DNA from: Chthoniobacteraceae bacterium | GTDB taxonomy: Bacteria; Verrucomicrobiota; Verrucomicrobiia; Chthoniobacterales; Chthoniobacteraceae | Reading direction: 5' to 3' | Length of the DNA: 29,585 bases | Assembly: GCA_049692655.1 (NCBI GenBank) | Contig: JBAVPB010000013.1 | Span: 1 to 29,585, forward strand | Shown here: positions 9,700 to 26,502 of the stretch, piece by piece | Numbering within the stretch: position 1 is the first letter of the stretch | How the letters are laid out: each line of letters begins with the position of its first letter | The notes under the pieces: generated by a model | Database searches by the model: none | What the model was told of the DNA's origin: nothing | Seen by the model: the letters and a program-made list of their open reading frames with translations, nothing else | Translations under genes and position numbers: made by a program

Positions 9700-9784
9700 C
9701 AAAATTACTACGCGATCCTGTTCATCCTGCCCTTTAAAATGAGAAGAGTTGCGGCACACGCCGCGCGCCGTTACAACCACACCA

Positions 9785-11689
9785 ATGTTACAAGCCTCAC
9801 CATCGCTCCTTTCCGCCAATGAAATCGTCCTTGCTTACGGACACCAGCATCTGCTCAACGGCGTGACGCTCGCGGTCGCCCCGCGCGAGAAGGTCGGCCT
9901 GGTCGGGCGCAACGGTTGCGGAAAGACGAGCCTCCTGAAAATCCTCGCGGGCACGAACGAGGCCGATGCCGGTGAAATCTCCCGCCGCCGCGGACTGCGC
10001 ATCGGATATCTCCCGCAGGAATTCGAGCTCGATGGCACAAAAACCGTCCTGGAAAACATCGAGTCCGGCACGGCGGATCTCATGGAGTGGCTGCGCAAAT
10101 ACGAGGAAGGCGAAGGCACCGAACTCGAGCTTGCCGACATGCTCCACGACATCGAAATGGCCGATGGCTGGAACCTCCAGAGCCGCATCAAGTCCAGCAC
10201 GACCGCGCTCGACGCGCCGCCATTGGATGCGCTGGTAGGATCGCTCTCCGGCGGTGAAAAACGCCGCGTCGCTCTCTGCCGCGCCCTGGTCGCCCAGCCC
10301 GATCTGCTGCTGCTCGACGAACCTACGAACCACCTCGACGCGGAATCGATCCGCTGGCTCGAGGATTTCCTCCAGAAATTTGCGGGCGCGGTGATCTTCG
10401 TGACGCACGACCGCTATTTCCTCGATGTCATTGCGACACGCATCATCGAGATTTCCGAGGGGCGCGCGTTTTCGCACCCCGGCAATTACACCGCGTTCCT
10501 TGAGTCGAAGGCAATCCGCCGCCAGATCGCCGAACAATCGGAGCGGAGACGCCAGCGATTTTTGCGCGAGGAACTTGAGTGGGTGCGTGCAGGCGTACGC
10601 GCGCAACGTTCGAAGTCGCGGAATAGGATCGAATCGTTTTACCAGGTGGAGGGCCTCGAGGCGCCGCCCGAGGAGCGCGAGATGGATCTGCTGATTCCGC
10701 CGGCTCCCGAGCTCGGAAACATCGCCGTGAATCTCGTCAATGCCGGGGCAAAAGTCGGCGAGGGCGCGAATGAACGGTGGCTCTTTCGCAATCTCAACTT
10801 TTCGCTGAAGCCGGGACAATGCACGGGCGTCGTCGGCCGCAACGGCGTGGGCAAGACAACGCTGCTGCGCCTCTGCCTCGGCGAACGCGAGCCGGACGAG
10901 GGCACGGTGACGATCGGCAAGCGCGTGAAGTTCAATTACATCGACCAGTCGCGCATGCATCTCGACCTCGACAAGACGGTGCTCTACGAAATCTCAGGCA
11001 ACAACGAGACCGTTTTCTTCGGGGAGACGGCGATGAGCGCGCGGGCTTATCTGCGGCGGTTTCTCTTCACCGACGAGCGGGTGAAGGAGCCGGTGAAGAA
11101 TCTATCCGGCGGCGAACGCGCGCGGCTTCTGCTCGCGAAAGTGCTGCGACGTGGCGGCAATTTGATCGTGCTCGACGAGCCGACGAACGACCTCGATCTC
11201 GCAAGCCTGCGCATGCTGGAGGAAGGGATCGCGGGGTTCGATGGCAGCGTGCTGGTGGTGAGCCATGACCGTTATTTTCTCGACCGGGTCTGCGACCAGA
11301 TCGTGGCGTTTGAGGATGGCGAGATATTCGTACAGCCTGGCAATTACTCCTACTACCTCGAGAAACGGAAGGCGCGCCAGCAGCAGGAAAAAAGCTGGGC
11401 AAATGTGGCGGCGACCCCGGGTAAGGAATCGGAAACCCAGAAGGGAGCCAAGGTGCGCAAGCTGAGTTTCAAGGAGCAGAAGGAACTCGCGTCGATGGAG
11501 GCGACACTGCTCGTGGTGGAGACGCGGGTGGAGGAGTTGAATACTTTGTTAAACAACCCGGAGTTTTTTGTCACGCGGGCGAAGGAGGCGCCGGGGTTGA
11601 TCGCCGAGCTGGAGGAAAAGAAGATCAAGGTCGCGAAACTCTATGCGCGGTGGGAGGAACTGGATGCCATCGACCAGGCTGGCCGGTAA
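9785..11689 (+). CDS. ABC-F family ATPase (two tandem ABC domains, Uup-like with C-terminal coiled coil)
   Basis: Two Walker A motifs (GRNGCGKTS and GRNGVGKTT). Two signature motifs (LSGGEKRR and LSGGERAR). Two Walker B motifs (LLLLDEPTNHLD and LIVLDEPTNDLD). No transmembrane domain. Charged coiled-coil C-terminal extension. The start is chosen at the ATG at 9785 (MLQASPSLLSANEIV), which aligns with ABC-F N-termini. Confidence 0.9.
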   Translation: MLQASPSLLSANEIVLAYGHQHLLNGVTLAVAPREKVGLVGRNGCGKTSLLKILAGTNEADAGEISRRRGLRIGYLPQEFELDGTKTVLENIESGTADLMEWLRKYEEGEGTELELADMLHDIEMADGWNLQSRIKSSTTALDAPPLDALVGSLSGGEKRRVALCRALVAQPDLLLLDEPTNHLDAESIRWLEDFLQKFAGAVIFVTHDRYFLDVIATRIIEISEGRAFSHPGNYTAFLESKAIRRQIAEQSERRRQRFLREELEWVRAGVRAQRSKSRNRIESFYQVEGLEAPPEEREMDLLIPPAPELGNIAVNLVNAGAKVGEGANERWLFRNLNFSLKPGQCTGVVGRNGVGKTTLLRLCLGEREPDEGTVTIGKRVKFNYIDQSRMHLDLDKTVLYEISGNNETVFFGETAMSARAYLRRFLFTDERVKEPVKNLSGGERARLLLAKVLRRGGNLIVLDEPTNDLDLASLRMLEEGIAGFDGSVLVVSHDRYFLDRVCDQIVAFEDGEIFVQPGNYSYYLEKRKARQQQEKSWANVAATPGKESETQKGAKVRKLSFKEQKELASMEATLLVVETRVEELNTLLNNPEFFVTRAKEAPGLIAELEEKKIKVAKLYARWEELDAIDQAGR

Positions 11690-11707
11690 TGGCAGGGATG
11701 CGGGATA

Positions 11708-11752
11708 GCTGACGGTTGGTAAGGGTTGGCAAGGGTTGATTAGCCCTGCCAA
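11708..11752 (+). repeat. Dispersed intergenic repeat, copy B
   Basis: GCTGACGGTTGGTAAGGGTTGGCAAGGGTTGATTAGCCCTGCCAA. It contains the half-sites TTGGCA-N15-TGCCAA. It lies 19 bp after the ABC-F stop and about 90 bp before jetA. Confidence 0.7.
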
Positions 11753-11841
11753 AACGGATGTTTTTAAATGAATGTGTTTGATTGCTTTTGGGCGCGGTTT
11801 TCTTTGTAATTTTGCGGCCCGACCCTGTTTCGTGACACAAA

Positions 11842-13269
11842 ATGAGTGGACTTGGCCATAGTTTATTTTCCGAAATCTCCCCGAAGTTCTTCGGCGTCCT
11901 CACCGGGCCGAATGCGCGGGTGTACCTCGACGTCGTGGACTGGATCGAGCGGGAAATGCCCGCGCGCGGGGATGCCATGGAGCGCGGCGAGATGCTGGAA
12001 ATCATCGACCGCGTGCTGGCTTCCGGCGCGGTGCTGCAGGCCGATGCCGAGGAGGAGGTCCACGAGGCGGAGGCGGACCATCCAGCGAGCCGCATCCTTC
12101 GCCGGCTGATCACGGCGGGCTGGATTTCGGAGGAAAAGCGGTCGGACTACCGGCATATCGTCACCCTGGAGGCCGCTGCGCAGATATTACTGGAAGCCAT
12201 GCGCAAAATCCTGAGCGACAATGTTGCCGCGTTTACCGGAAGCCTCCGGCTTGTGTGCGACCGGCTGGAGTTGTTGCGGTATCCGCATTCCCGCATGGAG
12301 TTGCCCTGGGAGGAATTGAAGAGCTGCCTCACCGAGGTGCGCTCCGGGTTGCGGGAATTGCTGAAAATCCGCAAGCAGGTGGAACGCTACGCCCAGCGCC
12401 AGTTGAAGACCGTCACCATCGCGGAGGCGCTCGACATTATTTACAACGAATTTTCCACGCTCATCACGCAGCAATGCTATCGCGAGTTGATCCACGCCCG
12501 GCTGCCCGAGCGGCTGCGGCAGGCGATGGAGGGACTCACGAATCTGGAGCAGGATGACCTCGCCCTCCAGAAATTACGTGACGATTTCATCCGCACCGCG
12601 CCGGATGCGACCGGCGCCATGCACGAGATCCTGCGGACAATCGAGGAGCTGTCGCTCGCCCTGGGGGATGTCGAGCCGACTGCGGACCGCGTCGATACCA
12701 GCACCGCCGATTTTGCGCGGCGCTCGCGGTCACGCATCCGCTACATCCAGGATGTGGGTTCGGCGCGCAGGCAGCAGATCAAGACGATCTTCGACTACGT
12801 GCGGGAACACCTTGCCCATGTGCGCCTCGGCGACCTGGAGGACAAATTCTCGCTGCCACCCATCAGGCTCGCGGAAGTCGGACTCGTCGGCAACAGCTCG
12901 CTGGCAAAAAGCCGCAAGCCCACGGACGCAGCGGCCCGGCGCCAGGTGGCTTTGCCCTTGAGCGAGGAGGAGAAAGAGGAAAGCCTGCGCGAAATGGAAA
13001 AGAACATGCGCAACGCGCTGCGCCTCGACCGGGCAAACCGGTTCGTGGACCGTCTGGAACTGAAGCGCGGCGAGAGCATCACCTCGGACCAGATGACGAT
13101 CTTCGCGGAGGATGACATCCTTGATGTGATCTCGTGCCTTGTCTTTGCTCCGGCGGGCGGCGCGAATTACCGGCTCTCCACCCTGCGGCAAATGCACCCG
13201 GAGGAACCTGTGGTGATGGATGCCAAGGGGGAATTTGAAATCGAACGGTTCACCGTGGAGAAAAAATGA
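11842..13269 (+). CDS. jetA: Wadjet JetA (MukF-like kleisin subunit, DUF3375-type), putative
   Basis: 475 aa. It is the first gene of a four-gene operon with the Wadjet size pattern (~475/210/1116/407 aa). Its stop overlaps the jetB start (ATGA). The assignment rests on operon architecture and on the recognisable JetC/JetD partners, not on a visible catalytic motif. Confidence 0.7.
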   Translation: MSGLGHSLFSEISPKFFGVLTGPNARVYLDVVDWIEREMPARGDAMERGEMLEIIDRVLASGAVLQADAEEEVHEAEADHPASRILRRLITAGWISEEKRSDYRHIVTLEAAAQILLEAMRKILSDNVAAFTGSLRLVCDRLELLRYPHSRMELPWEELKSCLTEVRSGLRELLKIRKQVERYAQRQLKTVTIAEALDIIYNEFSTLITQQCYRELIHARLPERLRQAMEGLTNLEQDDLALQKLRDDFIRTAPDATGAMHEILRTIEELSLALGDVEPTADRVDTSTADFARRSRSRIRYIQDVGSARRQQIKTIFDYVREHLAHVRLGDLEDKFSLPPIRLAEVGLVGNSSLAKSRKPTDAAARRQVALPLSEEEKEESLREMEKNMRNALRLDRANRFVDRLELKRGESITSDQMTIFAEDDILDVISCLVFAPAGGANYRLSTLRQMHPEEPVVMDAKGEFEIERFTVEKK

Positions 13270-13898
13270 GCGACGAACTTGCATCTTTGCCACTAGCAGC
13301 GGGACTGCTGCCGGAGCTGTCGGATTCCGACCGCGAGAATCTCCAGGCCGCCGTGAGCGAACTTTTCAACCGTCAGGCAATCATCCGCGACCTCCCGGGG
13401 GAGCGCGAACTCTACGAATGGGCGCGGCTGCATTTCAACTGGGTGAAGGAAATCTGCCTGCTGACCGGGTTCGACGTGATCCTGAACGAGGACGAGCAAT
13501 TGATCCATGCGCTGCCGAAGGAGCGCGCCACGCTGCGCAAGCTGCGGGTCGAGTGGACGCTGGTGTTGCTCGGCCTTTGGTACGATTACGACGTGCAACT
13601 CCGCTCGGAAGGCGCACCTGTCATCTTTACGGTCGAGACATTTAACGAGTCGCTCCGGGACAAGCTGGGCGACCGCCAGCCGGCGCTGACTTCGCTCAAG
13701 GAAATCCTGTCGTTCTTCGCCTCGCGGAAACTGGTGCGCATGGAATACGACGACGAGTTTCACCGTTCCCGGATCGAGGTGCTGCCGACCATCCGGTTCG
13801 TATTGCCCTTCGGCGAACTGGAGAAAGTATCGATCATGCTGGATGACCTCATGGCAACCGGCACCGCATCCGAGAGCCCACAGGAGGAATCGCACTGA
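13266..13898 (+). CDS. jetB: Wadjet JetB (MukE-like subunit, DUF4194-type), putative
   Basis: 210 aa acidic protein. ATGA start/stop overlap with jetA, and its stop TGA overlaps the jetC ATG (tgATG). Size and position fit JetB. Confidence 0.7.
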   Translation: MSDELASLPLAAGLLPELSDSDRENLQAAVSELFNRQAIIRDLPGERELYEWARLHFNWVKEICLLTGFDVILNEDEQLIHALPKERATLRKLRVEWTLVLLGLWYDYDVQLRSEGAPVIFTVETFNESLRDKLGDRQPALTSLKEILSFFASRKLVRMEYDDEFHRSRIEVLPTIRFVLPFGELEKVSIMLDDLMATGTASESPQEESH

Positions 13899-16800
13899 TG
13901 GCCAGCCGCTGCATCCGCCTCACGCGCATCCATGCCATCCAGTGGTTTGGGTATTGCGACACATTCGACATCCACGGGAACCTCTTGATTGCGGGCCGCA
14001 CCGGAGCGGGAAAATCGGTGCTCATGGACCTGATCCAGCTCGTGCTGATCGGCGACCAGCGGTCGAAATACAACGCCGCCTCGGACGGGCGCGGACACAC
14101 CTCGGGCCGCGACAAGAAAAGCTACTGCCTGTGCGACACGCAGGAGGACATCAACGGCGTGCCGCAGTATGCGCGGGATGGCGGCATCACCTACATCGCG
14201 CTGGAATTCACCTGGCCCGACGGGGAGCAGGTCGAGACATGGGGCATGCGGGTCGATTATCCCAACACCGAGACCCAGACGCCCGAGGAGGAATTTTTCA
14301 GGATTTCCGAAAGGCTGGAACGCGCGGATTTCGTCACGCCCGAGGGATACGCGCTCGATCTCGACGGCTTCCGCATCCTAGTCCGGAAAAAAGACGGCGA
14401 AACGTTCCGCAATGTCACCGAATACCGGAAGCGCCTCTCCGAGCACCTGAATTTCCACCGCGACACGATCGATTTTCTCATGCCATCGGCGATGTCGTTC
14501 GCGTTCCTGCCGAAGTTCGACGAGTTCTGCCGCCGGTACATCCTGCAGGCCGAGGATATCAAGATCGAGCCGGTGCAGCAGAGTTACCGGAGCTACCTGC
14601 GCATCCGCGAGGAACTGGAAAAACTGCGCGACAAGGCGCAGCGGCTCGAGGAGACGATCGCCGCGAGGAAGGAATGGGAGGACGCGCGCAAGGATGCCGA
14701 CGCGTGCCGGTTCCTCGAGGCGGAGTTCCAACGCGCAGCCGTGCGCGAGGAAGTCGCCACGCTTGAGAAGAAGCTGGCGGAACTCAACCGGCGCCAGGAG
14801 CAGCAGCAGAAGGATTACGAAGAAGTCTGCCAGTCGCTCACCACAAAATCGCAGGACCTGGAATCGCTGAAAAATCTTTTCAGGGACGAGGGCGGGGCGC
14901 TCCTGCTGGAACTCCAGGAGCAGATCCGCACCAAGGCCAGCCAGATCAGGCAACTCGAGCAAATCGGGAAAACCGTGGAGGAAGAGAAGAAGCGCCGCGT
15001 GCGCGTGACTGGCGAGTTTGCAAAGAAAGCGGCTGAGTTTCTTGCGGAACGCAATGCCGGATCGCCCGCGGAGTTGCTGCTGGCCATCAAGTCCCTAGAG
15101 GAGGGCCGCACTGCGGACATGCGCGCCGCACTGCGCCAGACCGCGCAGGCTGTGAAAGCTGTCGTCGCCCGGGTGAGGACGTCGATCCAGAACGAGAGCG
15201 AAAAATTTGCACAGACTAAAGGCGAGCTTGAGGCGCTGCAATCGCAGATCAAGAATCTCGACCGCAACCGGGTGATCCCCTCGCCGCTGCTGGACGAACT
15301 CAACCGGCAACTGCCAAGGAAGGGACGCGAAAATACGGCGCGGCAGCTTCGCGAGCTGTGCGAGGTGACGGACGAGGAATGGCGTCCCGCGCTGGAGCTG
15401 GCTTTCACCCGCAAATTCGCAGTGGTGACGAGCGCGGATGATTACCCGGCGGCGATGCGCATCTACAAGGATTTCCAGCAGGACAGCCAGCATGAGTCGC
15501 TGGTCGATCCGGACCGCGCGCTGTCGAAAAAACCGAAGGTGCTCGAGCATTCGCTCGCGGAAAAAATAGAATCGAAGCATCCGGTCGCCCGCGCTGTGCT
15601 GGATGAGTTGTTCGGTGGCGTCATTTGCGTGACCGCGCTCGACGACCTGCGGAAACATCCCGACGCAATCATGCCCGACGGGTTCCGGCAGCGGGGGATG
15701 TTTGCCGAGCGTCCGCGCCGGTACGACGGGTTTCCATGCATCGGCGCGAAGGGGATCGAGCGGCTCAAGGCGATGCTCGGCGCGAAGGCGGATGAATGCT
15801 CGGCCACGATCCGGCGCATCGAACCGCTGCTGGCGAGGGCGGAACAAATCCAGCGGATGGTTTCCGAGCAAAAGCTGGACTCCGAGGACATCGAGGGGGA
15901 CATCAATTCCGCATCGCGCCTGACGGAACTGGAAAAGGAGCGGGATACGCTGATCGCCCGGAACTCTGCGGCTTCCACGCCGGAGATGGAGAAACGGATC
16001 GAGGCGATCACCGCACTGACCAACCTCGTGAGGTCGCTGGACGAGCGCCGTCTTGAGTTGCACGGGAAGCTTCAATCCACGGAAAAGAACGATATCTCGG
16101 AACGTCTGGACGATGCGAAGCGAAGCCTCGACCGCGCGGAAAAAGCGTACCAGGAGACGATGACGAGCGTGGCAGCCGCGATCGACGTGGCACGGTGCGA
16201 TGCGTTGCGCGCCGAACTGACCGCGCAATACCCCACGGACGAATCGCGTGCGACGAAAGCGGGCCAGCGTTACCGGGAATTTGAAATCCGGCTGCCTGAA
16301 ATCAAAAGCCGTCTGGATTTGCTGAGGAAAGGGCTTGTCGATCAGCATGTGGACCTGCTTGCCGAGCCGGATTTCGATCCTAATACGGAATGGAATCCGT
16401 CTTACCGCAAACTCCTGGAACGCATCAAGGTGGAGGACATGCCGATGAGGCAGAAGCAGGCACTCGACGAGGAGCAGCGGTGGCAGGAATTGTTCAAGAC
16501 CACGGTGGCTGCACGTCTCTCGCAATCGCTGGGGAAGGTGCGGGACACAATCCGCGACCTGAATTTCCAGCTCAAGAATCCGATCGGCGACAGCCTGTAC
16601 CACATCCGCGTGGATGAAAGTCCGTCGCGTGAATTCCAAGAATACCGGCGGGTGCTGGAGGCGTGCTCAGTCACGCAGGAGGGGGACAGCATTTTTGCCT
16701 CGCTGGAAACCGAGGCGCGGGCGGGGGTGGAAAAAGTTTTCAAGGCGCTGGTGGATGAGCCCGAGGGGAAACTGGCGCAGGCGTTTCTCGATTACCGGAG

Positions 16801-17248
16801 TTACTACCGGTACGACATGGACGTGAGCGATCCGAAGCGGCCGGAGCTCCCGGCGAAAAGCCTGAACCGGCATGCGGATAAATTCAGCGGCGGGGAGAAG
16901 CAGACGCCTTTCTATATCTCGATCCTGGCGTGTTACCTGCGGGCTTACAAACGGCACCTGCCGCAGCGCTATACGGAGCCTTCCATCGGCCTCGTGCCGA
17001 TTGATGAGGCGTTTTCGAAGATGTCGGGCGAGCGCATCACGGACGCAATCCGGGCGCTGCGCGACACGGATCTGCAGGGCATCCTTTCGATGTCGAGCGG
17101 CAACTGGCCTTATGCGATCGGCGAATGCGACCAGGTGCTGGCGGTGCATCAGCGCGATACTTTTGAGAACGGGCGGAAATCGATCCGGAACATCGGCGCA
17201 CTGCTGGACCGGAAGGAGGCATTGAAACGCTCGGAGGAGTGGGGATGA
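13898..17248 (+). CDS. jetC: Wadjet JetC (SMC/MukB-like ATPase)
   Basis: 1116 aa. N-terminal Walker A in LLIAGRTGAGKSVLMDL (~13994-14017). Very long heptad-rich coiled-coil middle region. C-terminal ABC/SMC signature FSGGEKQ (~16884-16904). Walker B/D-loop in GLVPIDEAFSKMSGERI. Confidence 0.85.
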   Translation: MASRCIRLTRIHAIQWFGYCDTFDIHGNLLIAGRTGAGKSVLMDLIQLVLIGDQRSKYNAASDGRGHTSGRDKKSYCLCDTQEDINGVPQYARDGGITYIALEFTWPDGEQVETWGMRVDYPNTETQTPEEEFFRISERLERADFVTPEGYALDLDGFRILVRKKDGETFRNVTEYRKRLSEHLNFHRDTIDFLMPSAMSFAFLPKFDEFCRRYILQAEDIKIEPVQQSYRSYLRIREELEKLRDKAQRLEETIAARKEWEDARKDADACRFLEAEFQRAAVREEVATLEKKLAELNRRQEQQQKDYEEVCQSLTTKSQDLESLKNLFRDEGGALLLELQEQIRTKASQIRQLEQIGKTVEEEKKRRVRVTGEFAKKAAEFLAERNAGSPAELLLAIKSLEEGRTADMRAALRQTAQAVKAVVARVRTSIQNESEKFAQTKGELEALQSQIKNLDRNRVIPSPLLDELNRQLPRKGRENTARQLRELCEVTDEEWRPALELAFTRKFAVVTSADDYPAAMRIYKDFQQDSQHESLVDPDRALSKKPKVLEHSLAEKIESKHPVARAVLDELFGGVICVTALDDLRKHPDAIMPDGFRQRGMFAERPRRYDGFPCIGAKGIERLKAMLGAKADECSATIRRIEPLLARAEQIQRMVSEQKLDSEDIEGDINSASRLTELEKERDTLIARNSAASTPEMEKRIEAITALTNLVRSLDERRLELHGKLQSTEKNDISERLDDAKRSLDRAEKAYQETMTSVAAAIDVARCDALRAELTAQYPTDESRATKAGQRYREFEIRLPEIKSRLDLLRKGLVDQHVDLLAEPDFDPNTEWNPSYRKLLERIKVEDMPMRQKQALDEEQRWQELFKTTVAARLSQSLGKVRDTIRDLNFQLKNPIGDSLYHIRVDESPSREFQEYRRVLEACSVTQEGDSIFASLETEARAGVEKVFKALVDEPEGKLAQAFLDYRSYYRYDMDVSDPKRPELPAKSLNRHADKFSGGEKQTPFYISILACYLRAYKRHLPQRYTEPSIGLVPIDEAFSKMSGERITDAIRALRDTDLQGILSMSSGNWPYAIGECDQVLAVHQRDTFENGRKSIRNIGALLDRKEALKRSEEWG

Positions 17249-18462
17249 GCCCGGTGACCGACGTGATCGCGCGGCGCTATCTGGCGAGCCGGGCGGGACG
17301 CACGGGTGCAGGCAGGCAGGACTTGATTTTTCCATTCAACGATCTGCTCCGCGATGCGGAGAGTCTCCAGGGGTCGGCGCGCCACGAGGCGATCGGGCAA
17401 CTGGAGAGGCTGGAGAAGGAGGAGTTGCTCGTGATCGAGCGTCATGCGCGGGACCGCTCTGCGATTCTCAAAGTGCGGCTGCCGGTTGGCAAAGGAGAGG
17501 CTTTCATCGAGCGGATCGGGCGGCAGGGACCGGAAAGCCAGCGGCGCGGGTTTGCGGAGATGATGGGCGCGGAGTATGCGCAGGCTGCGGTGCCGGAGGA
17601 ATATCGCGAGGATTGGCTGCGGTATTGCAGGCAGACTGCGGAAGCGGCGGCGCGGGGCGTTTCCATAGCGCCGCTGGACAGCGCCAATGTGGACGCGAGC
17701 CGGGAGTTGCTCGATGTCTCGGTGAAACTGCTGAACTGGAAGGGGGAATCGTATCTGCGGTTTGCGAGTTGCGTGGTGTGCGGCGACTCGAAGCGGCTCG
17801 GCAATTTGAAGAGCGGTATCGACCGGCTGCTGGAGCAGATCACGCAGGGGCGCGTGCGGTCGCTGGGCGACCTGGGAATCACCGAGACGGGCGGCGGATG
17901 CTGGTTGCACGGGCCGGGGACATTGATCACGCAGCGGGGGCAGGTGGATCTCGGGGCGCTGAATCTGCCGGGGCATTTTTCGAAGTCGGACCTTGCCGCG
18001 GGGCGGATCGAGTCGGACGCGCAACGCTGGATCACCGTGGAGAATGAGACGATGCTGCTGGAGCTTGCGAAGCTGCACAGCGGCGTGATGCTGATGAGCA
18101 GCGGGTTCCGGGGTGGCGTGGCGAACTCGGCTGTGGTGGGTCTTTTGCAATCGGCTCCGGACTCGGCTGAGTTGTGGCACTTTGGGGATTCGGACCCGAA
18201 GGGGTTTGATATCCTGCGCGATTTGCGGGAGCGGACGGGGAGGCGCATTCGTTCGTTGCACATGGTTTTCCGGCCGGCGGGTGATTCGCCGGCGCTTTCG
18301 GCGGAGGATCGCAGGATCATCCAGCGGTTGATGGTGTCGGAGGCGATGACTGTGGAGGAGAAGGCGGAGATCGGGGTGATGCTTGAGGCTGGCGTGAAGG
18401 GGTTGTATGAGCAGGAGAGCCTGGGACGGCCGGGGGCGGCTTGGATGTTTTACCAAGTGTAA
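17245..18462 (+). CDS. jetD: Wadjet JetD (Toprim/Topo-VI-A-like nuclease subunit, DUF2220-type)
   Basis: About 405 aa. Toprim signatures: Glu in WITVENETML (~18031-18060) and DxD in HFGDSDPKGFDIL (~18181-18210). The ATG at 17245 overlaps the jetC TGA (ATGA). The track start at 17239 is an upstream GTG. Confidence 0.85.
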   Translation: MSPVTDVIARRYLASRAGRTGAGRQDLIFPFNDLLRDAESLQGSARHEAIGQLERLEKEELLVIERHARDRSAILKVRLPVGKGEAFIERIGRQGPESQRRGFAEMMGAEYAQAAVPEEYREDWLRYCRQTAEAAARGVSIAPLDSANVDASRELLDVSVKLLNWKGESYLRFASCVVCGDSKRLGNLKSGIDRLLEQITQGRVRSLGDLGITETGGGCWLHGPGTLITQRGQVDLGALNLPGHFSKSDLAAGRIESDAQRWITVENETMLLELAKLHSGVMLMSSGFRGGVANSAVVGLLQSAPDSAELWHFGDSDPKGFDILRDLRERTGRRIRSLHMVFRPAGDSPALSAEDRRIIQRLMVSEAMTVEEKAEIGVMLEAGVKGLYEQESLGRPGAAWMFYQV

Positions 18463-18487
18463 CATTGTTATGATCGTTGGGACTGGG

Positions 18488-18509
18488 ACATGACAGAGCA
18501 TGTCCCTCC
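18488..18509 (+). terminator. Hairpin element (second copy of the 34-bp repeat) immediately after jetD; candidate operon terminator
   Basis: GGGACATG-acagag-CATGTCCC lies 26 bp after the jetD stop and is followed by a moderately T-rich tail (ctgttgttt). It has the same orientation relative to its upstream gene as copy 1. Confidence 0.45.
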
Positions 18510-19210
18510 ACGCGGCTGTTGTTTGAATGGAAAATCGTGGATTGCAGAGGGCGCAGCGAGGTTCGGAGAATGAGGCGGAGTTAGGTGTTAGATTCTGGTG
18601 CATGTCATGCCTTCTCTACATGAATGTGACGAGCATTCAGCGGGCACAACCCCGGTGGAGTTGGTGTGTTTTTCTTGTGGTTACCCAGGGTAGCCGCGTT
18701 GCGGCAACCCTGAGATGGAGGGCGGAACACCGTTGGTGTTCGGGGACATTTCTGTGTAGATGGTTGGGAGTTACCTATCATATCCGATTATAAACAAATA
18801 TATTTTGGCGACCGAGAAACGTAATAATGAAGATAAGAAGAACGTGCCGTTTCCCTCTGTGTTTTACTTGCGATAGCTTATTTGATGCCACTTTGTTTGT
18901 GGCAGGAGTGTTATTCCGAGTTCGATTGACTTGGAGTTACCGTATTAGTTATTCTAGCCACAGTTCTTTATAGCTTAATGGCCCGGCCTGGCGCCGGGTC
19001 AGCGGGGGAACCAAATATTCCGCAAGTGCGGATCGGGGCTTATGGCGCCTGCGGCGTCAGGAACACTTGGTAGTTCCAGCCCGACAGCTAACCTCGTCAG
19101 CATTACCGGGTATAAGGGCTGTCCTGAAAAGGCTGCACCTGACTCGCAATAAAACAAAAGCTCCAGCTCACGCAGGGGCCGGAGGAAGATAGTTAGGAAG
19201 AGGCAGTGTT

Positions 19211-20518
19211 ATGAAACTTCTCACGAAGTTTGCTATGTTAGGTGTGTTGTGCGCCCTGATATGGGGCGCGGAAACTTACTGGGTGAATGTGATGCAGTCG
19301 GATATCTCCAGGGAACTGGCGATCCGGCAACTGAATGGAGGCAACGGCGCGTTTGACAGGTTGCGCGCGTTTGAATCCACAAAAGACATCATCCATACGG
19401 CTTGCACGGTCGCGATGATCGTGGGGGCGTGCGTCGTATTCTCCACGCCACCGTCGAGGAGCCGGCATCTCACGATGTGGCCGATGCTCATCCTCATGAT
19501 GAGCCTCACCGGCTGTGTGCGGCAGTTTGACAAGCCGGAGTATGCTCTGATCGATACTTCCGAGACGGGATTCCTGATCCCGCTGGAAGGCAACAGTGGC
19601 GAACAGGCGAAATTTGAGTCAGAAGAATACTTGAAGGCCAACAAGGCGCCGTCGAAACGCGTGCAGATCACGCACCGGTGGTCGCAGGAGGGCCGTTTCC
19701 CGACGGATGGGCAATGGATACCCAACGTGCGCCTGATCAAGGTGGACCGCTCGCCGGTGACGCGCGAGTGGACTGCGGACTCGACGACAGGCACATCGAA
19801 CAAAAACCAGGCGATCTGGATCGAGAGCGCGGACAGCGTGGGGTTCAGCATGGGCTTTACCTGCACGGCTTACATCCCCGAGGAATCGGCTGCGAAGTTC
19901 CTCTACTGGTACCCGAGTGGGTCGCTTGCGCAGGTGATGGACACGGAGATCCGGGGCCGAATCCAGCAGGCGGCGTCGGAAGTTGCCGCGAAATATCCGC
20001 TCGATTCGTTGCGGGAAAAGAAACAGGAAATCTGCGATGCGGTGCGCAGCAATGTGACCGATTTCTTCCTCGCGCGCGGCGTGGTGGTGACCACGATCGG
20101 CATGTTTGGCGGCATGACGTACGAGAACCAGGAGATCCAGAAATCGATCGATGCCACGGTGATCGCGCAACAATTGAAAGTGGTGAACCAGGCAAAATTC
20201 GAGGCGCAGCAGAAGGACAATGAGCGCGTGGAACTGGAAGCCAACGCGACGGCCGAGAAGGCGCGGCGCATTGCCTCGGGTGAGGCCGATGCGAAGAAGA
20301 CCATCGCGCTTGCGGAAGCGCAGGCGATCCGCGAGATCAACAAGGCGCTGAGCGAAGGTCAGCAGAATCCGCTGCTCTACCAGTTCAAAACGCTGGATGT
20401 GGAGAAGGCGCGGGTGGAAAAATGGAATGGTGCGTATCCGAACTACTACATCAGCTCCGGTGGCGGGAATGGCGCCGCGGCCATGCTGCTGCAAGTGCCG
20501 CCTCCATCCGTGAAGTAA
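19211..20518 (+). CDS. SPFH/band-7 (prohibitin/HflC-like) domain protein; possible lipoprotein from an internal start at 19475
   Basis: 435 aa. The C-terminal region (RIASGEADAKKTIALAEAQAIREINKALSEGQQNPLLYQFKTLDVEKARVEKW) resembles the HflK/C-prohibitin coiled-coil tail. An internal ATG at 19475, preceded by GAGGAG, gives MWPMLILMMSLTGC (lipobox L-T-G-C). The upstream 88 codons encode two hydrophobic helices. Confidence 0.6.
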   Translation: MKLLTKFAMLGVLCALIWGAETYWVNVMQSDISRELAIRQLNGGNGAFDRLRAFESTKDIIHTACTVAMIVGACVVFSTPPSRSRHLTMWPMLILMMSLTGCVRQFDKPEYALIDTSETGFLIPLEGNSGEQAKFESEEYLKANKAPSKRVQITHRWSQEGRFPTDGQWIPNVRLIKVDRSPVTREWTADSTTGTSNKNQAIWIESADSVGFSMGFTCTAYIPEESAAKFLYWYPSGSLAQVMDTEIRGRIQQAASEVAAKYPLDSLREKKQEICDAVRSNVTDFFLARGVVVTTIGMFGGMTYENQEIQKSIDATVIAQQLKVVNQAKFEAQQKDNERVELEANATAEKARRIASGEADAKKTIALAEAQAIREINKALSEGQQNPLLYQFKTLDVEKARVEKWNGAYPNYYISSGGGNGAAAMLLQVPPPSVK

Positions 20519-20542
20519 CGGGTACAGCGACTATGTCCTCGA

Positions 20543-20580
20543 AACGGAAGGCGCCGGGATGGGCCTTCCGTTTTTGTTCA
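20543..20580 (+). terminator. Rho-independent terminator after the SPFH gene
   Basis: CGGAAGGC...GCCTTCCG stem followed by TTTTTGTTC. It begins about 25 bp after the stop at 20518. Confidence 0.6.
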
Positions 20581-20762
20581 ATCAGATGCTTTTAAGAATT
20601 TAACCGCAAAGAGCGCGAAGGACGCAAAGGGGGGAGGAGGGAACTTCCAACTTCCAATTGCCGCCCACGCTCTTTTAAAAAAAACGCCGACTGCTGCATA
20701 TCATTATTTCAAACTATCGCGGGATCAGGTAGTCTGGATTCTGATTCTGGATATTTTGAAAC

Positions 20763-20960
20763 ATGGACTACGATATTTGCGATCCTTCCATCCGTTGCCG
20801 GGCCGACAAGGTCGGTGCGACGGTATTTGTCATCGAGCGGGGCTCAGGAAGGGCGTGCCGGGTGCTGGCTTACAATGAGCGCGATGCGGAGCGGCTGGCG
20901 CGCGAACATTTAGCGGATGAAAAGCCTGCCGATGAGGGGCCGTCGTTGTTTGATTTTTAA
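20763..20960 (+). CDS. Small hypothetical protein (65 aa)
   Basis: ATG-initiated ORF after a terminator and an AT-rich promoter-like stretch (tttaaaaaaaacgcc...gatattttgaaac). No recognisable motif. Confidence 0.35.
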   Translation: MDYDICDPSIRCRADKVGATVFVIERGSGRACRVLAYNERDAERLAREHLADEKPADEGPSLFDF

Positions 20961-21085
20961 AACGACGCGATGTTTTTGAAACCGGAGACCGGCAGGCGAA
21001 CCATGTTTAATTTTTGTGGTCGCGTGCGGGGTGGAGCGGAGTTACTTTCGGTCCAGCACAGAAAAATCCAACCGAGGCAAACCCC

Positions 21086-21823
21086 ATGACTGGCAATCCA
21101 ACTCTGAATCAAAACACTTTCACCGATGTAAGAGGGGCGACGGGGCAGGAGGCGATGACGGTGCAGGGGACGGTGAACAAGGCCTCGATCCTGCTGATCC
21201 TGGTGACGCTGGCGGCTTCCTACACATGGCACATGATGGCGACGGGGGATACGCAGAATGCGTCAATGTGGATAACCGGGGGAGCGATCGCTGGTTTTGT
21301 TTTTGCGATGATCACGATCTTCAAGAAAGACTGGTCGGCGGTGACTGCGCCGATTTATGCGATTTGCGAGGGGCTTTTCATCGGGGCGTTGTCCGCGATG
21401 TTTGAGAAGATGTATCCCGGGATCGTGCTGCGGGCGGTGATGCTGACATTTGGCACGCTGGCGGCGCTGCTGTTTGCCTACAAGACACGGCTGATCGTGG
21501 CCTCGGATAATTTCAAGCGCGGGATCGTGGCGGCGACGGGCGGGATATTCCTGCTCTACATGGCGACGTGGATCCTGAGTTTTTTCCATGTGAATGTGTC
21601 GTTCCTGTACGGGAACAGCATGCTGAGCATCGGGATCAGCCTTTTCGTGGTGGTGATCGCGGCGCTGAACCTGGTGCTGGACTTTGATTTCATCGAGCAA
21701 GGGGCGAGGGCGGGCGCGCCAAAATACATGGAGTGGTATGGGGCGTTTGGCCTGCTGGTGACGCTGGTGTGGCTCTACCTGGAGATCCTGCGCCTGCTGT
21801 CGAAGCTGAACCGGCGGGATTGA
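21086..21823 (+). CDS. Bax-inhibitor-1/YccA-family seven-TM membrane protein
   Basis: Start chosen at the ATG at 21086 (GAGG 8 bp upstream). The track ORF begins at 21014. N-terminus MTGNPTLNQNTF...GQEAMTVQGTVNKASILLILV followed by about seven hydrophobic helices is typical of the BI-1/YccA family. Confidence 0.6.
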   Translation: MTGNPTLNQNTFTDVRGATGQEAMTVQGTVNKASILLILVTLAASYTWHMMATGDTQNASMWITGGAIAGFVFAMITIFKKDWSAVTAPIYAICEGLFIGALSAMFEKMYPGIVLRAVMLTFGTLAALLFAYKTRLIVASDNFKRGIVAATGGIFLLYMATWILSFFHVNVSFLYGNSMLSIGISLFVVVIAALNLVLDFDFIEQGARAGAPKYMEWYGAFGLLVTLVWLYLEILRLLSKLNRRD

Positions 21824-21828
21824 GGATT

Positions 21829-21861
21829 CGACGCCCATAGGGCGTAGGCACGCTACTTTTT
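21829..21861. terminator. Hairpin between the convergent BI-1 and GH38 genes (candidate bidirectional terminator)
   Basis: ACGCCC-ata-GGGCGT stem-loop at 21831-21845, then CTACTTTTT. Confidence 0.4.
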
Positions 21862-23979
21862 CAAGCCGGGCATTCCCCGGGTGACATCGGCGATGAGGGG
21901 CTCACGTTGCAATGCGAGGGCATCCTGCTCAAGCCGCGCGGCAGTGACATTCCCCGGGGGATAGAACCGGAAGGTGAACGATTGTTCGCCCTGGTCGCTG
22001 AAGGCCAGGCGCTTCTCCATGATCTTCGGGTACGGCTCGTGGTGCGCCATGATTGCGGAGCGCAGGAGCGTCAACCGAATTTCGCGCTGCGTGCCGCCGA
22101 GTGAAAATGTGTCGGGTAAGACGACGCCGGCCTTGCGGCCATCGCCGAGCGTGAGGAGCGTGCGATCCCGGACGGGGCGCTCCCGGCCATCGCTCTCGCG
22201 CAGCAAGCCGCCGCCGGAGACGCCGTCTTCGCGGTGGAGGATGGTGTCGCCGGGCTGCCAGTTGAGCCTGAGCACGCGGTGCGCCTCGAGCCAGGTGACG
22301 CGCAGGCGCAGCTCCAGGAATGGTTCACCGGAGTAGCGGCGCCATTCGGCAAACAGTGGGCTGGCGCCGATCTTTCCTTTCACCAGCCATGCGTGGCGCA
22401 AGGGGCCGGCCTCGATCATTTCGGGGCGGTTCCATTTTGGCTCCGCGACCACTTTTCCATCGTAGGAATGCACGCCGTGCGACCATGTGTCGCTTTTGTC
22501 GGCGATCAATTGCAGCGCGGGAACTTCCCAATCCAGATCGGCGGCGATTATTCGCAGGGCTTTTCCTTTTGATTGCAGCGAGAAGGCGGCGGTATCCCGC
22601 AGTGCCGGAGCTTTCTTTTTGCGCACGCAGATTCGCAGGATACGCAGTTCGTTCTTTTTGACTTTGACCTTGAAAAGCAGGGCGGGGATGCGCCATTCCA
22701 CGACCGCCTTGTGCTGGATGCGCTGATGAGGAATCTCGCGGTTTTTTTCATCGAGCAGGCAAAAGTCGGTTCCCCACGGCAGGCCTTCCATCCAGGGCTC
22801 GTGCTCGAGCCAGCCGTCGAAATCGGCGCCGCTGAAATTGCCGATGACGAGGCGCTGACGGATGTCGGGCACGAGCTTCGGCGCACGGCGGCGGAGGGCA
22901 AGCTGGAGGACTTCGTCGCCGACGGCGCGGGCCATGCCGAGTTGCGCATCGGCCTGCACGTAGGAAGCGGGCAGGCATGTGCCGCCGAGCGTGTCGTGGA
23001 AATGATTAAAGCAGGTCCATTTCCACGCCTTCTCGATTTCGGGCGCGGAGGCTTTTGCGAGGGAAGGATCGTGGCGCAGCGCTTCCTCCGCCTGGGCGAG
23101 CAGATTCTCGGCGGAGCGCACGCCGGTCTTGATGGAACGATGGACGCTATAGCAACCGACGGCGTGCATCTGGAGCTCGCCGGTGACGAGCGGCAGTTTG
23201 TTTTTTTCACGGGCCACCGCCTTGAAAAAACGGGAGGGGGATGAGAACTCGATGCGCGCGCCGGGGATGATGTCGCGGTTTGCACGGAGCCATGCGATCA
23301 TTTCCTCCGTGGGGCCGCCGCCGTGATCGCCGACGCCTGCGAAACACATGGTGTGATTTATTCCCGGAGGCAATCCGGTAAGGCTCTTCTCAAGCAGGTC
23401 GGGCTTGAAGCCGGTTTTCAGGTTGTCGCCATTGTAGGCACCGGCGATGCGGAAGGTGACGATCTCGTTTCCGCCCGGGGCGGTGCGCCAGCGGAAGAGG
23501 CGCGCGGGCAATTCCATTTCGTGCTCCTGGGGACGCATCATTATGTAGTGCTTCTGCCCTGCGGCGGCGATCAATTGCGGGAGGTAGGCGGTGTGGCCGA
23601 AGGTGTCCACGTTGTAGGCGGTGGCGGGGAAAATTCCGAAGCGGCTTTTGAAGTAAGCGCGGCCGAGCTCGATCTGCTTTTGCAATCCCTGGTAGCCGGG
23701 GAGGTTGCAGTCGGGCTGCACGTACCAGCCGCCGACAATTTCCCAGCGGCCGGCCTTGATGTGGCGGGCGATGCGCTGGAAGAGAGCGGGGTCGATGCGC
23801 TCGACCTGCTCGTACACCCAGGCTTCGCCGCGGGTGAAGGTGAGGTCGGGGTGACGGTCGAGCATGTTGCACATGCTGTCGCAGGTGTTGAGGATTTCAT
23901 CCAGGCCCGATGACCAGTGCCAGAGCCAGACGGGATCGATGTGGGCGTTGAAAATGATGTGGATGGTCTTGAGGCTCAT
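21853..23979 (-). CDS. Glycoside hydrolase family 38-like (alpha-mannosidase-type N-terminal domain) protein
   Basis: About 708 aa from the ATG at 23979 (MSLKTIHIIFNAHIDPVWLW, resembling the GH38 HxHxDxxWLW metal-binding start; GGWYVQPDCNLP). The 16 extra N-terminal codons in the track are a translated copy of intergenic repeat C. Confidence 0.55.
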   Translation of the reverse strand: MSLKTIHIIFNAHIDPVWLWHWSSGLDEILNTCDSMCNMLDRHPDLTFTRGEAWVYEQVERIDPALFQRIARHIKAGRWEIVGGWYVQPDCNLPGYQGLQKQIELGRAYFKSRFGIFPATAYNVDTFGHTAYLPQLIAAAGQKHYIMMRPQEHEMELPARLFRWRTAPGGNEIVTFRIAGAYNGDNLKTGFKPDLLEKSLTGLPPGINHTMCFAGVGDHGGGPTEEMIAWLRANRDIIPGARIEFSSPSRFFKAVAREKNKLPLVTGELQMHAVGCYSVHRSIKTGVRSAENLLAQAEEALRHDPSLAKASAPEIEKAWKWTCFNHFHDTLGGTCLPASYVQADAQLGMARAVGDEVLQLALRRRAPKLVPDIRQRLVIGNFSGADFDGWLEHEPWMEGLPWGTDFCLLDEKNREIPHQRIQHKAVVEWRIPALLFKVKVKKNELRILRICVRKKKAPALRDTAAFSLQSKGKALRIIAADLDWEVPALQLIADKSDTWSHGVHSYDGKVVAEPKWNRPEMIEAGPLRHAWLVKGKIGASPLFAEWRRYSGEPFLELRLRVTWLEAHRVLRLNWQPGDTILHREDGVSGGGLLRESDGRERPVRDRTLLTLGDGRKAGVVLPDTFSLGGTQREIRLTLLRSAIMAHHEPYPKIMEKRLAFSDQGEQSFTFRFYPPGNVTAARLEQDALALQREPLIADVTRGMPGLKK

Positions 23980-23997
23980 GGGATACGCAATAGCAGA

Positions 23998-24027
23998 GGG
24001 TTGGCAAGGGTTGATTAGCCCTGGCAA
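23998..24027 (+). repeat. Dispersed intergenic repeat, copy C (direct relative to copy B)
   Basis: GGGTTGGCAAGGGTTGATTAGCCCTGGCAA. It is identical to the core of copy B except for one base. It lies 19-48 bp upstream of the GH38 start codon. Confidence 0.7.
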
Positions 24028-24036: not shown

Positions 24037-25128
24037 TTATGAGGTGAGCGGGGGGTCGGCGTCGCCGGGGTTGCCCCAGGTGGATTCGGTGGCGTGGCTG
24101 GTGGTGGTTCGCACCAAGCCGGGGAGGACGGCGATGTATTTGCCCTGCTTGACGATGGACTGGGGACTCCATTGGGAGATCCACCAATCCTCGTCGGCGC
24201 CGCGATGCGGGGCGCCGGGGCGGTGGCGGGGGGCCTGGTAGTATGCGGTGGGGATGGGGAGCATTTTTTCCCAGTAGTGGCGGTGGGCGTGGAGGTGGAT
24301 GCCGGGGCTCATGCGTTGCAGGAGGATTTTGGTGCCGTTGATTTCGCGTTCGCCGTAGGTTTTGTGGAGGGGGTTGTGGCGGCCGGTGAGCAAGGGGTAT
24401 TCGACGGGGTGCTGGACGCGGGCGAGGGCGGTGAGAAGGTCTGGGCGGACTTCGACGTCGTCCTGCAGGTAGCAGATCCACTCGACGCCGGGATCGGCAA
24501 GCCAGTAGGAGAGGCCGATGTTGAGGGCGGCTGATAAGCCGCGGTTTGCGGGGAGGTTGAAGAGGCGGGCGCCGAAGTGTGCGGCGAGGCGGGCGTAGGG
24601 GGCGGCGTGTTCCGGGGCGGAGCCGTCGTTTACTACCAGGATGGGGGCTTTGAGGAGGGAGATGCTTTGCAGGGAGTGCTCGAGGCGGTCGGGGCGGTTG
24701 AAGGTGGTCATGAGGATGACCGTGGTGGGGCGGGAGAACTCGGAGTTGTTCCGGAAGGAGGGGGTGTAGAAAGTGTCGGGATCCCGGATTTTGTCGCGGA
24801 AATTTTGGATATGCTCCCTGCCGCGCGGTTCGGTGGGGGCGGGGTGATTGAATGTGTAGATGACGAAGACTTCGTTTCCAAAAAGGGGGACGGCTTCGCG
24901 GAGGAGGAGGTCGCAAATTTCCCTGCCGACCTCCTCGATGGCACCTTTGTGGATGACGAGGGCATCGAGCTGGCGGATGTCCACATGGCGGGAGACGCTG
25001 TAGGGGTAGGTGCGCGGGTACATCTCGTGAAATTCATTTGGCGCGAGGATGGTGGCGCTTTCGTCGAAATGCGCGGCGAGAAAATCGGCGGCGGATTTCC
25101 AGTATTCGTCGTGGTAGGGAAAATTCAT
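24037..25128 (-). CDS. Glycosyltransferase family 2
   Basis: 363 aa from the ATG at 25128 (MNFPYHDEYW...). GT2 blocks: TTVILMTTFNRPDRLEHSLQSI, VVNDGS, LPANRGLSAALNIG, and DDVE (acceptor/DXD). The track ORF extends to 26259 only as a frame-shadow over the opposite-strand GT4 gene. Confidence 0.75.
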   Translation of the reverse strand: MNFPYHDEYWKSAADFLAAHFDESATILAPNEFHEMYPRTYPYSVSRHVDIRQLDALVIHKGAIEEVGREICDLLLREAVPLFGNEVFVIYTFNHPAPTEPRGREHIQNFRDKIRDPDTFYTPSFRNNSEFSRPTTVILMTTFNRPDRLEHSLQSISLLKAPILVVNDGSAPEHAAPYARLAAHFGARLFNLPANRGLSAALNIGLSYWLADPGVEWICYLQDDVEVRPDLLTALARVQHPVEYPLLTGRHNPLHKTYGEREINGTKILLQRMSPGIHLHAHRHYWEKMLPIPTAYYQAPRHRPGAPHRGADEDWWISQWSPQSIVKQGKYIAVLPGLVRTTTSHATESTWGNPGDADPPLTS

Positions 25129-25227
25129 TGCGGATCGTGCCGGCAGGTCGCAATGTTTCGCGAACTTCCCAAGCAGTGAAAGTTTGTTAGCCTCAAAAGC
25201 GGAGGCAAGAAAGCCTTTTTCCACAGA

Positions 25228-26502
25228 ATGCCAGAATCGAAACCGTCCATAGTTTTTTTGAGTCCTGTGATCCCGGCTTTTTCCGGGAATGGGCTTGCGA
25301 TGCGGGCGGGGCGGAACCTGCAGGCGCTGGCGGGGGAGTTTACGGTGCATCTGCTGGTGGTGGCGATGTACGGGGGGCAGGAGGGCGAGCCGGAGGAGGA
25401 GGTGATTCGCCTTTGTGCAAGCTGGAGACGCATCCTGGCGCCTGTGCCGGCGGCAAAGAAATGGCGCTGGTCGTTGTTCAATTTCCTGAAATGGGGACAG
25501 GGGCGGCTGCCTGCGGAGTGGAGCGGCTGGACGGCGCGCAATGAAAAGGAGGCTGCGGCTTATTTTGCCGAGACAAAGTGTGAGCGGCTGTGGGTTTTCC
25601 GGTTTTATCTGCTGCCTTGGGCGCGGGCGTGGCTGGATGGCGGCGGGGAGGCCTGGCTGGATATCGATGAGATGGAATCGGGGGCGCGGGAGAGCCAGGC
25701 GGGGCTGCTGTCGCTCGCGGGGGAGAAAACCGCGGCTGCGCGGTTGCGCGGGGATGCGGGGCTTTATCGCGGGCTTGAGGAGAGGCATTTGCGGAGGTTT
25801 GGGCGGATCGTGACGGCGTCGGAGCTGGAGGCGGAAAGAGTAGCAGCCAAGCTGCAGGAGGAGGCCGTGGTGACCTGGCCGAATGTGGTGGCGATTCCGG
25901 ATGGGGTTCCGGGGGCGTCGAAGGATTCCGGCGATTCTGTATGGCGGCTGCTTTTTGTGGGGAGTCTGGGCCATTTTCCGAACCGGGAGGCGATTCATTT
26001 TGCGGCGCGCGAGGTGTTGCCGCGATTGCAGGCGTTGATTCCGCAGCCGGTGGTGCTGTGCGTGGCGGGCGCGGGGGCAGATGCGCACCGGGAGGCGTTT
26101 CGCGGCCTGCCACATGTGGAATGGCTGGGGACGGTGGCTGACCTGGGGCCCACGTATGCGATGGCGGATCTCGTGCTGGTGCCGTTGCGCGCGGGGGGCG
26201 GGACGCGGATCAAGATCCTGGAGGCATTTGCGCATGGGAAGCCGGTGGTTTCCACGCATACCGGGGCGGAGGGGTTGCGGGGGCTGGAGCGTGGGCGGGA
26301 GTTGCTGCTTGCGGATGACCCGGCGGAGATCGCGGCGGCGTGCGCGGATTTATTTTACGATGCGCAAAAGCGGGAGGCGCTGGCGGCGAATGGACGCGCA
26401 TGCGTGGCGGAGCGGTACTCCCCGGCGAACCTCGGGGCGCTCGCGGCGGCATTGCGTGGGGAGATGGACGCTACGCGTGCGGGATCACGAGGCCGGGAAT
26501 GA
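25228..26502 (+). CDS. Glycosyltransferase family 4 (GT-B, 'group 1')
   Basis: 424 aa. C-terminal GT-B signature GGTRIKILEAFAHGKPVVSTHTGAEGL (E-x7-E region). Divergent from the GT2 gene. Confidence 0.8.
   Translation: MPESKPSIVFLSPVIPAFSGNGLAMRAGRNLQALAGEFTVHLLVVAMYGGQEGEPEEEVIRLCASWRRILAPVPAAKKWRWSLFNFLKWGQGRLPAEWSGWTARNEKEAAAYFAETKCERLWVFRFYLLPWARAWLDGGGEAWLDIDEMESGARESQAGLLSLAGEKTAAARLRGDAGLYRGLEERHLRRFGRIVTASELEAERVAAKLQEEAVVTWPNVVAIPDGVPGASKDSGDSVWRLLFVGSLGHFPNREAIHFAAREVLPRLQALIPQPVVLCVAGAGADAHREAFRGLPHVEWLGTVADLGPTYAMADLVLVPLRAGGGTRIKILEAFAHGKPVVSTHTGAEGLRGLERGRELLLADDPAEIAAACADLFYDAQKREALAANGRACVAERYSPANLGALAAALRGEMDATRAGSRGRE

Follow-up and report, generated by a model that had tools for sequence, protein, structure and literature searches.

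Repeats around a Wadjet operon in a Chthoniobacteraceae bacterium probably belong to a small dispersed intergenic family and do not mark island ends

Do direct repeats on either side of a defence operon mark the ends of an acquired island? The question is raised by a 29,585-nt contig of a Chthoniobacteraceae bacterium metagenome-assembled genome (JBAVPB010000013.1; hereafter the window, meaning the whole stretch analysed), in which the Wadjet operon jetABCD lies between two direct copies, B and C, of a short intergenic repeat, with a third, inverted copy, A, upstream. An earlier note on this DNA had offered two readings, a repeat family resembling repetitive extragenic palindromic (REP) sequences or attachment-site-like (att-like) repeats that delimit a 12.3-kb island. 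The evidence presented here argues strongly for a lineage-restricted family of small dispersed intergenic repeats, most likely non-autonomous, of which copies B and C flank Wadjet by density alone and not as att sites.

The presence and orientations of the three copies, as described in the earlier note, were borne out. They have GGTTGGCAA[G/C]GGTTGATTAGCCC in common, where chance would be expected to give none, and the 23-mer GGTTGGCAAGGGTTGATTAGCCC was found with 0 mismatches at 11724-11746 (+) and 23999-24021 (+) and with 1 mismatch at 2685-2707 (-), as compared to no match in any of 100 dinucleotide-preserving shuffles. The lengths given for the copies were too short: a repeat finder identified 32 nt shared between B and C in direct orientation (97% identity) and 50 nt between A and B (92% complementarity), the latter having been put at about 39 bp, and each copy extends further than had been drawn. 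True extents were set by a profile built from canonical family copies. Copy B was found to be a complete 62-nt unit at 11690-11751 (+), copy A (2685-2734, -) covers model positions 8-57 with both termini decayed, and copy C (23980-24026/7, +) covers model positions 6-62, with a degenerate left end and one decamer fewer. That all copies are intergenic was confirmed by Pfam annotation and gene calling.

The same repeat was found in many other places. The exact 21-mer TTGGCAASGGTTGATTAGCCC is present in 63 metagenome stretches, mostly from one assembly, Ga0302319, which has 42 exact-core copies on 37 contigs with a total of 1.14 Mb. Loci labelled L with a number served as the relatives to which the window was compared. 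A profile search returned 72 hits, which corresponded to 56 non-redundant copies with unrelated flanks once split hits had been merged and copies with identical flanks removed. According to a purpose-written codon-usage gene caller that also recovers the window genes supported by Pfam, 53 of these 56 copies are intergenic, and the 3 exceptions fall in weak gene calls. No orientation with respect to the adjacent genes is favoured: co-directional pairs enclose 14 antisense and 12 sense copies, and a further 13 and 6 lie between convergent and divergent genes, respectively. The left end tends to lie very close to a stop codon, at an approximate median of 11 nt versus 52 nt for the right end. Orthologous copies have been retained at 81-89% nucleotide identity, namely, those of A in L017/L019 and of B in L144, as well as the pairs L013/L026 and L043/L053. 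An exact-pattern scan with TTGGCAASGGTTGATTAGCCC of 185,579 species-representative genomes, among which the nearest relatives have only 74-75% ABC-F identity, gave 0 matches, and the family was absent from 80 loci of other Verrucomicrobiota, from jet loci of other Chthoniobacterales, and from viral contigs, plasmids, and phages. A count restricted to additional copies flanking seed matches gave a density of about 1 per 80 kb. Paired copies are also seen elsewhere, with two in 10.5 kb of L031 and two in 15 kb of Ga0302319_10013469, and the 3 copies in the 29.6 kb of the window are therefore dense but not unique.

Alignment of the matches with their flanks revealed that the family unit is a sharply bounded 62-nt element, TGGCAGGGATGCGGGATAGCTGACGGTTGGYAAGGGTTGGCAAGGGTTGATTAGCCCTGSCA. 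Columns are on average 94% identical across 31 distinct full-length copies, a value inflated in the right-hand part by the 21-mer used to collect the copies. The element starts with TGGC and ends with SCCA, and its termini are 8-nt inverted repeats, TGGCAGGG/CCCTGCCA, that are perfect in about one-third of the copies and have one mismatch in most others. The tandem duplication mentioned in the earlier note is real, and the core in fact consists of three 10-mers, GGTTGGYAAG GGTTGGCAAG GGTTGATTAG, present in copy B at 11714-11743 (+) as GGTTGGTAAG GGTTGGCAAG GGTTGATTAG. The number of GGTTGGYAAG units between the constant left and right modules ranges from 1 to 6 across the family, with one unit in L003, L020, and L063 and six in L049, and the L011 element has a length of 82 nt. 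The half-sites TTGGCA-N15-TGCCAA, also pointed out in that note, are present in copy B, but the palindrome is not a conserved feature of the family: among 40 members, about 26 have TGGCA as the right half-site and about 13 have TGCCA. An internal ATAG (GTAG in L003, L009, L022, and L063) is not located beside the stem. Many copies (e.g., those of L013, L023, L036, L052, and L060) are preceded on their 5' side by a weakly conserved GGGYCGCWW motif, and its presence or absence between orthologues, as in the 12 extra nucleotides of L013 relative to L026, suggests that it may be an optional extra module.

The copies of the window occupy different gene contexts, all of which were annotated using Pfam. 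Copy A is located in the divergent intergenic region of the LpxB (1344-2528, -) and MBOAT (2748-4151, +) genes, with its left end 13 nt from the MBOAT ATG. Its orthologues in a related species share 88% (L017) and 81% (L019) nucleotide identity, and homology continues on both sides. Copy B begins directly 3' of the stop codon (TAA, 11687-11689) of the ABC-F gene (9749-11689, +) and ends 90 nt before the ATG of jetA. The four genes jetA, jetB, jetC, and jetD (11842-18462, +), which are not part of the repeat, form one operon with the Wadjet domains PF18982 (JetA), PF13835 (DUF4194, JetB), AAA_29 and SbcC_Walker_B (JetC), and PF09983 (JetD_C). They are followed by an SPFH gene (19211-20518, +), a Bax-inhibitor-like (BI-1) gene (21014-21823, +), and the GH38 gene (21853-23979, -), beyond which lies a GT2 gene (24037-26259, -). 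Copy C occupies the 57-nt gap from the GT2 stop (24037) to the GH38 start (23979), is antisense to both genes, and abuts with its left end the GH38 start codon (CAT at 23977-23979). No orthologue of copy C was obtained, nor was a GH38 or GT2 homologue present in any locus examined.

The block between B and C was inspected for features of an island. Pfam annotation of all its genes revealed no integrase or other recombinase gene, no tRNA was found in the whole window, and the GC profile is flat, with values of about 0.58-0.64 both inside and outside the block. The ABC-F of loci L144-L148 is 97% identical to that of the window at the amino acid level (88.8% at the nucleotide level), and BLAST homology was restricted to positions 9734-11740. 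These loci possess an orthologous copy B right after the ABC-F stop, which is interrupted by a 58-nt foreign repeat; identity to the window then resumes through AGCCCTGCCAAAA and ends at CCCTGCCAAAA, at about position 11754. Downstream of it, an AT-rich stretch and six tRNA genes were found, and neither jetA nor GT2. In L144, the six tRNA genes are contained in 1.7 kb (8680-10357), are preceded by the AT-rich non-coding stretch, and take the position that Wadjet has in the window. The comparison with relatives lacking Wadjet, which the earlier note had recommended, hence returned copy B followed by unrelated DNA; an empty site consisting of ABC-F, a single repeat, and GT2 was not seen in L144-L148, which are short contigs in which a more distant junction is possible. 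ABC-F loci from 80 GTDB genomes, at 67-75% amino acid identity (tblastn best segment), were too distant for an empty-site comparison, and among them only GHcc, and once SPFH, remain nearby.

In L149, whose ABC-F is 85% identical, the ABC-F gene is followed by a phosphoribosyltransferase gene and then by a 66-amino-acid open reading frame (ORF) with 80% nucleotide identity to 20759-20954 of the window, a position inside the proposed island. In the window, this ORF (...DYDICDPSIRCRADKVGATVFVIERGSG...; 20763-20960, +; 85% amino acid identity in L149) is located between the SPFH and Bax-inhibitor-like genes. For jetA, the closest homologues, at 77-80% identity, were found in unrelated defence islands with restriction-modification, GmrSD, AbiEii, and HNH genes, and the nucleotide homology of L150-L153 is confined to 11842-18431, i.e., jetABCD, with the family repeat absent there. 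Two of these loci, L152 (11425-11880) and L153 (5145-5600), have a PD-(D/E)XK_3 gene (PF13366) between jetA and jetB and a second copy of it upstream of jetA. The SPFH gene is widely conserved in Verrucomicrobiota (858 homologues at E<=1e-80). Upstream of it, a c-di-AMP (ydaO-type) riboswitch was identified at 18962-19117 (+) (Rfam RF00379; 50.8 bits, above the gathering score), and relatives at 82-90% identity share only the riboswitch and SPFH module (18914-20521), whereas both flanks differ. As jetABCD, the riboswitch and SPFH module, and the 66-amino-acid ORF separate in relatives, the 12.3-kb block is not a unit. Within it, only jetABCD behaves as a transferable cassette in relatives, and elsewhere the repeat is not its boundary.

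These data make it extremely unlikely that B and C are att-like direct repeats produced by site-specific integration of an island containing Wadjet and the SPFH, BI-1, and GH38 genes. Like the ends of such an island, they are direct, 97% identical over 32 nt, and flank a segment with a defence system, and the DNA 3' of copy B differs between close relatives, where the window has Wadjet and L144 a tRNA array. However, the same sequence is present at at least 50 unrelated loci and is therefore not unique to the ends, the block has no integrase or tRNA target and the GC content of its flanks, and what follows the repeat in L144 is unrelated DNA and not the right flank of copy C. Nor is the cargo co-inherited: SPFH travels with its riboswitch independently of jet, jetABCD homologues occur elsewhere without the repeat and with homology that stops at the operon ends, and L149 links ABC-F to the ORF at 20.76 kb. 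The island proposed in the earlier note is consequently not supported. A different role at junctions was considered, in which gene cassettes of this lineage would be gained, lost, or exchanged preferentially at the CCCTGSCA end of the element. This end would serve for docking or recombination, either because a site-specific or targeted insertion system recognised the element or because recombination made use of it as short homology. Shared sequence was found to stop a few to about 20 nt from the right end in 2 of about 7 orthologous comparisons, namely, B against L144 (Wadjet versus the AT-rich stretch and six tRNAs) and L008 against L012, where a 2.2-kb insertion or deletion with a PMT_2-like gene lies beside the right end of the orthologous copy; the homology of corresponding genes in L020, L039, and L044 likewise breaks off at the element. 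Yet breakpoints are equally common where there is no family copy, such as on both sides of the riboswitch and SPFH module, at 9734 upstream of ABC-F, and at the jetABCD ends elsewhere. In addition, four comparisons run straight through the element, the element of L044 is inverted relative to that of L039, and the sample is too small for statistics. Given that breakpoints occur at almost every operon compared and that four comparisons run through, a junction role is kept only as a minor alternative, which we consider unlikely. If it were true, the cassettes exchanged would include Wadjet in the window, the tRNA array of a sister strain, and a glycosyltransferase-like gene at another locus, and the repeat family would organise operon-scale genome plasticity, including the placement of defence systems, rather than be inert.

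Two further explanations assign a molecular function to the element. As an operator or iteron, it would be an array of binding sites for a DNA-binding protein, and its copies would define a regulon or nucleoid-organising sites. Its three to four direct TGGCA motifs, in which TGGCA(A)GGG recurs at a 10-bp spacing equivalent to one helical turn, and the conservation of orthologous copies agree with such a role, which is nevertheless very unlikely in view of where and how the copies occur: 13 of 56 are flanked by convergent genes and many lie directly against stop codons, the copies keep no preferred distance from gene starts or orientation to them, the decamer number varies from 1 to 6, and the insertion of other repeats into copies is not apparently selected against. 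Moreover, neither a sigma-70-like promoter nor an intrinsic terminator was found in copy B. A sigma-54 promoter was rejected by eye, since the spacing in GG-N9-GC falls one base short of that required. Barely credible is a structured RNA as the product of the element, whether a small RNA or a hairpin that regulates in cis, for which the TTGGCA...TGCCAA stem would be a candidate. Although the terminal stem and this hairpin can pair in 84-90% of the cells across copies, there is no covariation in either, and the predominance of TGGCA over TGCCA at the end of the element disrupts the third, middle pair in 20 of the 31 distinct copies. Fold energies on either strand, as RNA or DNA, were indistinguishable from those of shuffles (z of -1.3 to +0.2), the orientation relative to transcription is random, and an Rfam search with the repeat did not match any family; a hairpin or structured RNA was thus rejected on the fold z-scores and the absence of covariation. 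The sequence GGTTGGTAAGGGTTGG resembles the thrombin-binding aptamer, GGTTGGTGTGGTTGG, and a G-quadruplex at GGTTGGTAAGGGTTGG/GGTTGGTAAGGGTTGGCAAGGGTTG would be speculative.

The element was compared with known classes of dispersed repeats. REP sequences are imperfect palindromes of 20-40 bp with a 5-13 bp stem, a short loop, and a terminal GTAG or CGTC tag, and together with bacterial interspersed mosaic elements (BIMEs) they are mobilised by REP-associated tyrosine transposases (RAYTs) (PMC3733652; PMC2817692); GTAG REPs have been reported in the verrucomicrobium Opitutus terrae (PMC3733652). The element resembles REP/BIME sequences in being extragenic, high-copy, lineage-specific, often located just 3' of coding regions, arranged in mosaic clusters with other repeats, and free of target-site duplications. 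It differs from them in its length of 62 nt, in that only its 8-nt termini pair, imperfectly in most copies, in a fold that is not significant, and in its occurrence as singletons and not head-to-head dimers; no RAYT was seen among the genes between paired copies, as judged by length and first residues. As there is no 20-40 bp palindrome with a GTAG or CGTC tag, the element fails the REP definition. The REP-like family of the earlier note consequently stands in the broad sense, with dozens of copies on unrelated contigs that are nearly all intergenic, but not in the strict one, as the palindromic stem-loop and the tag are lacking. Bacterial miniature inverted-repeat transposable elements (MITEs), such as Correia/NEMIS, ERIC, and RUP (reviewed in PMC3184786), are another class of reference. 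With these it shares a short, non-coding sequence, terminal inverted repeats with 5'-TG...CA-3' ends, sharp boundaries, and intergenic sites that are sometimes co-transcribed with neighbour genes. In contrast to them, it has no target-site duplication, inverted termini of only 8 nt, and no known parent insertion sequence, and insertion polymorphism was not observed among loci that had been selected by the repeat itself; with inverted termini in the absence of a target-site duplication, it corresponds only in part to the MITE definition. The BOX elements of Streptococcus pneumoniae are modular boxA-boxB(n)-boxC intergenic repeats of about 100-300 nt with a 45-nt internal unit. Both are dispersed in intergenic regions in tens to hundreds of copies, encode no transposase, and have conserved end modules with complementary termini around an internal module of variable number. 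The element described here is shorter (62 nt, with an internal unit of 10 nt), belongs to another phylum, has no sequence similarity to BOX, and is not predicted to form a stable stem-loop. Its build most resembles that of modular repeats such as BOX, and it is thus a lineage-specific repeat similar to BOX elements or MITEs and not a classical REP. While the element is new, the class of small dispersed intergenic repeats is well known.

Because its boundaries are sharp, its flanks unrelated, and its copies highly identical to each other, we infer that the 62-nt unit has most likely spread as a non-autonomous element mobilised in trans. Its copies would now persist at fixed intergenic positions, in either orientation, over at least species-level divergence, and B and C would flank Wadjet only through the density of the family in this genome, with 3 copies in 30 kb. 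Such short dispersed homologies may help local rearrangement; the direct copies B and C (32 nt, 97%) could support a rare deletion of the block and the inverted copies A and B an inversion. Several points weigh against the proposal of a dispersed, mobilised family. The mobility of the 62-nt family itself is only inferred. A target-site duplication was not found, the mean flank match being 1.8 nt as compared to 1.9 nt for 500 shuffled pairings, and no transposase was evident between or beside paired copies (L009, L011, L016, L031, L037, and L045), as judged by length and the first 60 residues without a family search; on these grounds alone, the genes enclosed by such pairs resemble housekeeping genes. 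Nor was any long element sharing these ends observed. The element was present in all orthologous comparisons, with no empty site, in loci that were selected by the repeat itself. Copy B is located exactly at the synteny breakpoint between the window and L144, unlike copy A, both sides of which are collinear with a related species. Family copies are about 3 times as dense in the window (1 per 10 kb) as in repeat-bearing contigs (1 per 27 kb). Finally, the dozens of copies were counted in a sister population at 81-89% nucleotide identity whose contigs may represent more than one genome. Dozens of scattered copies, which the earlier note had named as the observation that would favour a repeat family over an island boundary, were thus seen in that sister population and not in the same genome.

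Other small repeats were also identified in this lineage. The window contains a perfect inverted pair of a 34-nt sequence, TGGAGGGACATGCTCTGTCATGTCCCAGTCCCAA, at 5-38 and 18477-18510, each copy of which is internally palindromic and the second of which starts 15 nt after the jetD stop codon. It had no match in the metagenome loci examined and is therefore a separate repeat family. At least 3 further short intergenic repeat families (...TCGACTCAGGGAGAAGTCGAGGGGCAAGGGCGGCAA..., CTTATCCCACTCAATCCCGGTTTATCCCAC..., and TTAACCGCAAAGAGCGCGAAGGACGCAAAGGGG...CTTCCAACTTCCAA) are common to the window and the metagenome loci, at 9446-9508, 9659-9700, and 20595-20657 (also at about 9630-9660). Two other small elements, one of about 35-38 nt (TTGCCGCCCTCGCCCCTCGGCCTCTCC..GAGTCGAG) and another of about 58 nt (AATCGAGGCTTTGCGAGATGATGCCGTGGGCGGAGG...CTCGTTCCCCG), show presence/absence differences between orthologous loci and are also inserted inside family copies. 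Their sites include L013 at about 5385-5425 (compared to L026), L059 (compared to L031), L144 at 7221-7279, L053, L047, and L045. Direct evidence for the mobility of small repeats in this clade is thus provided. In addition, several copies of the 62-nt element (L016-, L026+, L043+, L052+, and L013-) are directly followed at their right end by a purine-rich repeat, GAAGAGAAGTATAAAGGATGAAGGATAAAGGATAAAACGGGGGAGAAAATCAGCG..., with a length of about 60-70 nt, giving BIME-like composites. The intergenic regions of this lineage are mosaics of small repeats.

The repeat has direct consequences for annotation. As the earlier note had recognised, it is translated artefactually, and GLIN(P/R)CQPL... is read in the ORFs 2394-2747 (+), 11549-11752 (-), and 21853-24027 (-). 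In the last of these, taking the longest ORF places the start of GH38 at a TTG (24027) and adds 16 artefactual codons over copy C; the true start is likely to be the ATG at 23979. The repeat, read as GLINPCQPLPTVSYPASLP, is thus found in at least 3 spurious ORFs or N-terminal extensions of this contig and may seed false protein families and wrong start codons. It is also unsuitable for drawing island boundaries around this Wadjet locus. More generally, these observations draw attention to an uncultured Chthoniobacteraceae-like clade whose intergenic regions hold several nested families of small repeats and whose operon-level synteny is very low. The main use of the repeat is as a caveat for annotation and as a pointer to this unusually repeat-rich and poorly syntenic clade.

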